From sequence record NC_001604.1: a DNA stretch of 39,937 nt. One strand, 5' to 3'. Made by a program: the position numbers and the translations under genes. This DNA is from Escherichia phage T7. The notes beneath the pieces are model-generated. The model saw only the letters and a program-made list of their open reading frames with translations. It made no database searches and was not told the DNA's origin. Below are positions 7,608-7,880 of the stretch, one piece after another (positions within the stretch are counted from its first letter, which is position 1; the number at the start of each line of letters is the position of its first letter).

Positions 7608-7763
7608 ATGTTTAAGAAGGTTGGTAAATTCCTTGCGGCTTTGGCAGCTATCCTGACGCTTGCGTATATTCTTGCGGTATACCCTCAAGTAGCACTAGTA
7701 GTAGTTGGCGCTTGTTACTTAGCGGCAGTGTGTGCTTGCGTGTGGAGTATAGTTAACTGGTAA
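7608..7763 (+). CDS. 1.4: gene 1.4, small hydrophobic protein of unknown function
   Basis: ATG 7608 after AAGGAG; MFKKVGKFLAALAAILTLAYILAVYPQVALVVVGACYLAAVCACVWSIVNW. Confidence 0.75.
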   Translation: MFKKVGKFLAALAAILTLAYILAVYPQVALVVVGACYLAAVCACVWSIVNW

Positions 7764-7783
7764 TACGACTCACTAAAGGAGGT
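7761..7783 (+). promoter_or_regulatory. T7 promoter phi1.5 (class II, ACTAAAG variant)
   Basis: TAATACGACTCACTAAAGGAGGT; coordinates within 1 nt. Confidence 0.85.
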
Positions 7784-7790
7784 ACACACC

Positions 7791-7880
7791 ATGATGTACT
7801 TAATGCCATTACTCATCGTCATTGTAGGATGCCTTGCGCTCCACTGTAGCGATGATGATATGCCAGATGGTCACGCTTAA
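7791..7880 (+). CDS. 1.5: gene 1.5, 29-aa hydrophobic peptide
   Basis: ATGATGTACTTAATGCCATTACTC...; MMYLMPLLIVIVGCLALHCSDDDMPDGHA; below ORF-track cutoff. Confidence 0.65.
   Translation: MMYLMPLLIVIVGCLALHCSDDDMPDGHA

Follow-up and report, generated by a model that had tools for sequence, protein, structure and literature searches.

The evidence gathered here makes it likely that genes 1.4 and 1.5 of bacteriophage T7 are real, non-essential genes for predicted inner-membrane micro-proteins acting as conditional modulators, gene 1.5 being placed as a first cistron and gene 1.4 being carried on a cassette. Both are long-annotated, already known T7 genes with known promoters; T7 is among the best-studied viruses, yet the two genes stand without an assigned function. 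The present analysis adds that selection on genes 1.4 and 1.5 is frame-specific, that the 1.5 family keeps a common architecture across genera, that gene 1.4 has the character of an insertion and is extremely narrow in distribution, and that the promoters are not dedicated to these genes. Gene 1.5 is by no means peculiar to T7: this promoter-proximal gene for a predicted membrane micro-protein is widely conserved, its product bearing a recognisable acidic tail motif, and in combination with two published phenotypes this conservation makes the gene a sensible choice for targeted experimental work. The understanding of T7 is left unchanged by these findings, both genes being dispensable in the laboratory.

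Location and signals of genes 1.4 and 1.5

The window, that is, the whole 39,937-base stretch of DNA that was analysed, is T7, and its stretch 7400-8200 is 100% identical to T7 records, which annotate genes 1.3, 1.4, 1.5, 1.6 and 1.7. The coordinates and peptide sequences of both open reading frames were found exactly as the initial annotation had quoted them. The features of this locus are the following:

7562..7593, + strand: early terminator TE (E. coli RNA polymerase), made of a hairpin at 7562-7581 plus a T-rich tail
7595..7600, + strand: Shine-Dalgarno sequence AAGGAG of gene 1.4, 7 nt upstream of the ATG
7608..7763, + strand: gene 1.4, 51 aa MFKKVGKFLAALAAILTLAYILAVYPQVALVVVGACYLAAVCACVWSIVNW, ATG at 7608, Pfam DUF5464
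7761..7783, + strand: phi1.5, class II T7 RNA polymerase promoter (-17 to +6), +1 at 7778
7776-7782, + strand: Shine-Dalgarno sequence AAGGAGG of gene 1.5, 8 nt upstream of the ATG
7791..7880, + strand: gene 1.5, 29 aa MMYLMPLLIVIVGCLALHCSDDDMPDGHA, phrog_12128
7878..7900, + strand: phi1.6, class II T7 RNA polymerase promoter, +1 at 7895
7906..8166, + strand: gene 1.6, 86 aa, conserved downstream neighbour and anchor for the comparative survey

The early region ends at TE, and gene 1.4 begins directly 3' of it. The TE hairpin (RNA fold -18.3 kcal/mol, z -2.65) and its tail are kept in all aligned relatives and are annotated as TE in phage 13a; no inverted repeats beyond TE were found in the region, and 7400-8200 gave no Rfam match to an RNA element. 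The proposal that each reading frame lies behind its own signal holds as far as translation is concerned, each having a strong Shine-Dalgarno sequence, but gene 1.4, which is preceded by TE and a ribosome-binding site, has no promoter of its own and is read by T7 RNA polymerase from upstream promoters. The TAA stop codon of gene 1.4 forms the first 3 nt of phi1.5 and that of gene 1.5 the first 3 nt of phi1.6; likewise, the 5' end of the phi1.5 RNA (GGAGG) is the ribosome-binding site of gene 1.5, and the 5' end of the phi1.6 RNA (GGAG) that of gene 1.6.

On the standard T7 map, the phi1.5 and phi1.6 transcripts cover the class II genes and beyond. The promoter cores TAATACGACTCACTAAAGG, at 7761-7779 and 7878-7896, both carry A at -2 and form a direct repeat with a spacing of 117 nt; a dinucleotide-shuffle control gave an expectation of 0 such cores by chance. 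The initial annotation had described the promoters as dedicated to these small genes, a description that we could not sustain. On the + strand downstream of phi1.5 and phi1.6, terminator-like sites are no stronger than chance before Tphi (24170-24210), the first strong downstream terminator, so that transcripts from both promoters span the whole class II block and beyond. They are thus ordinary class II promoters feeding about 16 kb of downstream sequence and are not private to genes 1.4 and 1.5; gene 1.5 just comes first among the cistrons read from phi1.5. Both promoters are listed in PMC6938266.

The position of gene 1.5 as the first cistron after a promoter is a conserved arrangement. The phi1.5 promoter is kept in 18/18 Teseptimavirus loci examined and is annotated under this name in phage 13a, and T3-like, KP32-like and Helsett-like phages have the upstream promoter only, without a second one between genes 1.5 and 1.6. 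Two records depart from the usual promoter sequences. In Salmonella phage Vi06 (locus L003, 1201-1305; promoter at 1290), phi1.6 starts CAACACGAC and not TAATACGAC, and therefore the usual TAA is lost and gene 1.5 extends to 34 aa; the phi1.5 sequence of this phage is also divergent (CGATACGAC). In T7_70L (MZ375245; locus L104, 490-520), removal of gene 1.4 by engineering has taken with it the TAA that constitutes positions -17 to -15 of phi1.5, leaving this promoter as TTTTACGACTCACTAAAGG, and the phage is viable with the altered promoter.

Coding status of the two reading frames

The interval from the ligase gene to gene 1.6 was taken from 18 natural Teseptimavirus genomes and its open reading frames were listed. 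Selection was measured as pooled Nei-Gojobori pN/pS values, comparing the annotated frame with the two shifted frames; laboratory-evolved T7 records (AY26477x, MZ375xxx and MZ318xxx) were left out because they carry mutagenised or engineered changes. For gene 1.5 (19 natural sequences), a pS of 0.40 and a pN of 0.07 translate into 0.18 for the annotated frame as against 0.98 and 0.88 in the shifted frames, while gene 1.4 (8 sequences) yielded 0.31 in frame versus 0.93 and 1.22 out of frame; the corresponding in-frame value for gene 1.6, included for comparison, was 0.29. The KP32-type gene 1.5 gave 0.13 in frame versus 1.1 and 11.8 in the shifted frames, and the Berlinvirus-type and T3-type sequences comprised too few distinct members to separate the frames. 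Judged by these substitution patterns, genes 1.4 and 1.5 are real protein-coding genes under protein-level purifying selection, and the selected function that the initial annotation had suspected is borne out by the frame-specific ratios.

It could be argued that the two frames are accidental, lying open in the spacer between TE, phi1.5 and phi1.6 and closed by the TAA of a promoter. Both stop codons are indeed promoter TAA triplets, both genes can be deleted, and our search of the accessible literature found no direct detection of either product, whether as proof of translation, by proteomics or as membrane location; from their sequences, however, we infer that gp1.4 and gp1.5 would escape routine tryptic proteomics. 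Since the purifying selection is specific to the annotated frames, a reading as accidental spacer frames is untenable, and the strong ribosome sites, the conservation of length and architecture across genera and the extreme hydrophobicity ranks described below also speak against it; we attach practically no weight to it.

Another possibility is that gene 1.5 serves as a cis-acting translated leader, for which ribosome loading at the 5' end of the phi1.5 RNA would count and not the peptide, the loading either stabilising the phi1.5 transcript or coupling into gene 1.6. In keeping with this, the 1.5 reading frame is promoter-proximal in every genus, and the last codons of the KP32-type gene hold the ribosome site of gene 1.6 and end 2-3 nt before its start. 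Moreover, among the 19 Teseptimavirus sequences the first and last four codons of gene 1.5 (7791-7802 and 7866-7877) show no or almost no synonymous change and the middle codons show many, so that part of the conservation may act on DNA or RNA; the pattern suggests either an additional DNA/RNA constraint at the ends of the gene, beside the promoters, or local recombinational homogenisation. Against a leader role, selection on gene 1.5 is frame-specific, the helix and the DDxx(W/M)P pattern are kept across genera despite differing nucleotide sequences, and gp1.5 is toxic in trans when expressed from a plasmid (PMC13483052). In T7 itself, gene 1.6 is independent of gene 1.5 translation because a second promoter lies between them. 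We therefore consider a translated leader improbable and retain the peptide as the selected product.

Distribution and architecture of the two families

The conservation check proposed for T7-like phages came out in favour of both reading frames, to very different extents. Gene 1.5 was present in 18/18 Teseptimavirus loci, always directly after phi1.5, and ends in the phi1.6 TAA in 17/18 of them, Vi06 being the exception. Its product matches PHROG 12128 end to end (E 9.6e-23, residues 1-29/29), has no model in Pfam, and was found by tblastn, in its T7 type, in 172 phage records. The peptide reads as MMYLMPLLIVIVGCLALH followed by CSDDDMPDGHA, that is, about 17 hydrophobic residues at the N-terminus, no Lys or Arg anywhere, and the acidic tail DDDMPDGHA. 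Direct reading of examples from the T3-like, Berlinvirus, Helsettvirus and Przondovirus phages revealed the same succession of promoter, reading frame of 24-35 aa and gene 1.6. The frames at the 1.5 position are MWIILFAIVATLGLMVADDNIWPDC in phiYeO3-12 (T3-like), MLFLIAAAVFATFAFVIIDDNCWPDC in 285P, MLLVTTIAILFILYVYIIDDSTWPNC in fPS-53 and MSINLILIIVFILAAIVWSMNDEPPKGA in KP32.

To this we added a survey of 80 IMG/VR loci anchored on gene 1.6 and not conditioned on gene 1.5. A hydrophobic-plus-acidic reading frame right after a phage-promoter-like sequence was seen in 73 of the 80 loci, the exceptions being mostly K1F-like phages, which lack it. The design common to the family opens with 17-20 hydrophobic residues and closes with an acidic tail matching DDxx(W/M)P(D/N/E); basic residues are few or absent, and the T7 type has none. 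Alignment of the T7-type with the T3/Berlin-type profile by hhalign gave a probability of 61% (E 7.9e-5) over 22 columns of these very short peptides; this is suggestive of a relationship between the two types, which the shared gene position supports. Position and predicted design together identify gene 1.5 as a wide positional family in most Studiervirinae genera.

Several loci carry further or modified members. Bas104 (locus L006, 1500-1622) and JeanTinguely (locus L014, 1414-1530) have an extra 1.5 paralogue between genes 1.5 and 1.6, MMYLMPLLMLFLVSLLILIPVYAVLRDDDDDD(DD)TQDDHA, with a poly-Asp tail of 8-10 residues; as it is preceded by a decayed promoter copy, TGACGACACCACTAAGGAG, it reflects a tandem duplication of the promoter-plus-1.5 unit. 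One IMG/VR phage (locus L094, 949-1494) has three small hydrophobic frames consecutively upstream of gene 1.6, two of which combine the helix with an acidic tail (MEEVSMWFTLFWCLVSFLAGLAIGCLVCHDTDDI and MNPLWLIVIVFVASWVFIWLDDNWPSGPTAGAHKE). The C-terminus of the 1.5 product is altered or extended in at least two IMG/VR loci of the KP32 type (60 aa and 36 aa variants), in L031 as a result of an A-run that is 1 nt shorter near the 3' end. The reading frame of these variants is kept through ...NDEPPK, and the final residues of KP32-type products thus appear less constrained.

Gene 1.4 was found in 7/18 natural Teseptimavirus genomes (8/19 with T7), always as a 51-aa frame, and is absent from most close relatives. 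Its product matches Pfam DUF5464 over residues 1-51/51 (124.3 bits against a gathering cut-off of 25; E 2.3e-36) and corresponds to phrog_17655, both Pfam and PHROGs being without an assigned function. The family is strikingly small: tblastn found 53 phage records, mostly T7 itself, only 5 clusters occur among 5.8 billion proteins, and an exhaustive profile search recovered only 2 representatives among 1.84 billion. Comparison with phiA1122, 13a, Yanou and KKE5P revealed an exact 183-bp indel between the TE T-tract and phi1.5; in these four phages the T-tract joins the promoter directly (GCGTTT|AATACGAC). From these alignments gene 1.4 emerges as a lineage-restricted insertion cassette of a very narrow family. 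The 183 bp contain a ribosome site and the reading frame only; gene 1.4 resembles a moron in being a discrete insertion between collinear genes, but it lacks a promoter and a terminator of its own.

The start region of gene 1.4 (7595-7613) and that of gene 1.6 (7893-7911) form a direct repeat identical at 18/19 positions, which may record how the 1.4 cassette arose. The shared sequence, AAGGAGACACT[T/A]TATGTTT, includes the first two codons (Met-Phe), and the repeat would permit a 298-bp recombinational deletion of gene 1.4, gene 1.5 and both promoters. Gene 1.4 has been deleted as non-essential (PMC12153263), and the sequence record of a viable genome-reduced T7 displays an exact engineered deletion of 7608-7763.

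The ligase-TE junction is an insertion hot spot. JeanTinguely (L014, 816-1286), PVN09 (L017, 773-1234) and phiYeO3-12 (L019, 1547-2020) have an HNH homing endonuclease gene inserted where the ligase gene ends (3' end), and WX1 and 285P have an unrelated 60-aa soluble frame at this place. In KP32 (L021, 1624-1707), a second tiny hydrophobic reading frame, MTPLEITLTCILVFIFGTVVGFYGACD, starts at the ligase stop codon, and similar frames occur in loci L034, L036, L038 and L050; in these Klebsiella phages it occupies the position of T7 gene 1.4, with an unrelated sequence.

Membrane character, phenotypes and comparison with known systems

We ranked the 373 small reading frames (25-70 aa, six frames) of the genome by their most hydrophobic 17-residue segment, and gene 1.4 came first and gene 1.5 third. 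The 17-residue windows of both products have summed Hessa-scale values below zero, and both peptides are accordingly dominated by predicted membrane-type hydrophobic helices. The initial annotation had taken them for single-pass membrane peptides; the membrane-like character applies to both, but the single pass is unlikely to extend to gp1.4. In this peptide a basic N-terminus (MFKKVGK) precedes two hydrophobic segments that are separated at Pro26, the second helix being rich in Cys, and AlphaFold2 modelled helices at residues 2-24 and 26-50 (mean pLDDT 84), so that a two-helix hairpin is, on the model, more likely than a single pass.

For gp1.5, cleavage as a lipoprotein precursor at a lipobox-like IVG|C (residues 11-14) was also considered. 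The motif I-V-G-C is present at residues 11-14 of the T7 peptide and [IVL]-G-C in 17/19 Teseptimavirus sequences, but no basic residue precedes the hydrophobic core, Salmonella phages Vi06 and Sal_R1S have Tyr in place of Cys14, the paralogue lacks this Cys, and members of the T3, Berlin, KP32 and Helsett types are likewise without a Cys at that position. With the Cys not conserved and a basic n-region absent, we rejected this reading, to which we would give hardly any credence.

The predicted two-helix hairpin of gp1.4, with its basic N-terminus and both ends inside, is also what an auxiliary holin-like or membrane-permeabilising protein might look like. In the sequence records of T7 holin-deletion lines (MZ318361-3), gp1.4 lacks one Val through an in-frame deletion that was there from the outset, and the substitution A35D, in the second helix, appeared after passage 10 and by passage 20, as lysis timing was recovering; these gp1.4 changes are not discussed by the authors, who argued for further holin activities in T7 (PMC8365609). 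The same authors, however, credited the recovery of lysis timing to genes 16 and 19.5 (PMC8365609). In addition, gp1.4 ends in ...CVWSIVNW and so is without the charged, hydrophilic C-terminal domain that is usual in (class II) holins; its gene, a neighbour of the ligase gene in the class II region, is far from the lysis genes and is missing from most close relatives. A holin-like gp1.4 hence strikes us as very unlikely.

That no function is known, as the initial annotation had it, remains true of biochemical function, none being given in PHROGs or Pfam, but not of phenotypes, which have been published for gene 1.5 (PMC2696425, PMC13483052). Knock-outs of gene 1.5 appeared in parallel in three phage lines, one of T7 and two of T3, from which the ligase gene had been deleted and which were propagated on a host deficient in ligase (PMC2696425). 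Plasmid-expressed gp1.5 halts the growth of E. coli in minimal medium, a block that is relieved by stringent-like RNA polymerase alleles, and two-hybrid assays gave no consistent interaction of gp1.5 with RelA, SpoT or RpoZ (PMC13483052). As 34 of the 53 T7 genes were toxic in the same screen (PMC13483052), the toxicity of gp1.5 is not very specific. The knock-outs, for their part, could be a local expression artefact, since gene 1.5 closely follows the ligase gene that those lines lack.

In T7, gp2.5 and gp4 bind the polymerase through acidic C-terminal tails, and by analogy the membrane-anchored acidic tail of gp1.5 might bind a DNA-handling protein, in which case loss of gp1.5 would help when ligase is limiting. 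The parallel knock-outs in ligase-deleted lines (PMC2696425) fit such a part in DNA metabolism, as do the location of gene 1.5 among nucleotide and DNA-metabolism genes (1.2, 1.3 and 1.7), the acidic tail with its aromatic or Met-Pro element as the most conserved feature of the peptide, and the existence of a paralogue with a poly-Asp tail. Most family members, however, have only 3-4 acidic residues in the tail, the knock-outs could be the neighbourhood effect mentioned above, and gene 1.5 is dispensable in normal hosts; we judge a role of this kind to be rather improbable. Somewhat less unlikely, although still a long way from our preferred reading, is a broader proposal in which the 1.5 family would be conserved promoter-proximal micro-proteins, each displaying a short acidic (W/M)P tail on a single membrane helix for recognition by one particular partner of host or phage origin and thereby connecting the inner membrane with either DNA metabolism or stringent-response physiology, with the locus acting as a peptide nursery. 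If true, it would explain both the knock-outs in ligase-deleted lines and the rescue by stringent-like RNA polymerase; the nursery idea draws on genes 1.4 and 1.5 themselves, on the paralogue with the poly-Asp tail and on the additional reading frames of KP32 and L094.

Our preferred reading is that of small inner-membrane modulators, the mechanism of which we infer as follows: (i) gp1.4 and gp1.5 would enter the inner membrane post-translationally, since the synthesis of such short chains terminates before they can leave the ribosome; (ii) gp1.4 would form a hairpin with both ends cytoplasmic, and gp1.5 would span the membrane once, its acidic tail lying at the surface; (iii) in the middle period of infection the peptides would bind or perturb a host membrane-associated component; and (iv) the outcome would be a conditional fitness benefit, turning into harm if the balance is upset, as by overexpression or in a ligase-deficient background. 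Separately, co-translational membrane tethering of the phi1.5 transcript (transertion) was rejected by reasoning, as a 29-aa chain is still in the ribosome tunnel at termination.

The annotated T7 genes 1.4 (DUF5464/phrog_17655) and 1.5 (phrog_12128) have sequences and coordinates identical to those found here, with end-to-end model matches and no difference. The genes named 1.5 in T3-like phages, Berlinvirus, Helsettvirus and Przondovirus (phrog_10145 and unclassified) share with T7 gene 1.5 the position, the size of 24-35 aa and the architecture, but their sequence identity to it is low and they fall into separate PHROGs families without function; many of them end in Cys (WPDC), whereas the T7 peptide ends in DGHA.

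Among better characterised peptides, the type I toxins Ibs, TisB and Hok are very small and hydrophobic and harm growth when overexpressed. The start of gp1.5, MMYLM..., is reminiscent of the Ibs peptides, but its tail is acidic and not polar or basic, and its toxicity is conditional on minimal medium. In the search for an antisense-RNA partner, no minus-strand promoter-like site was found in 7000-8600 and no Rfam match in 7400-8200, and T7 is not known to be transcribed leftward. Other phages have small membrane proteins that act against envelope processes of the host, an example being Gp11 of Staphylococcus phage PhiNM1, the growth-inhibiting product of one of its early genes, the targets of which are known (PMC11237401). 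Both the phage group and the host are different here, and Gp11 has no sequence similarity to gp1.4 or gp1.5. Finally, KdpF, AcrZ, MgtS and PmrR are bacterial inner-membrane peptides of 29-50 aa, each with a single helix, that are inserted post-translationally and bind larger membrane proteins. The two T7 peptides resemble them in small size and in having a predicted membrane helix, and differ from them in being unrelated in sequence, phage-encoded and expressed mid-infection.
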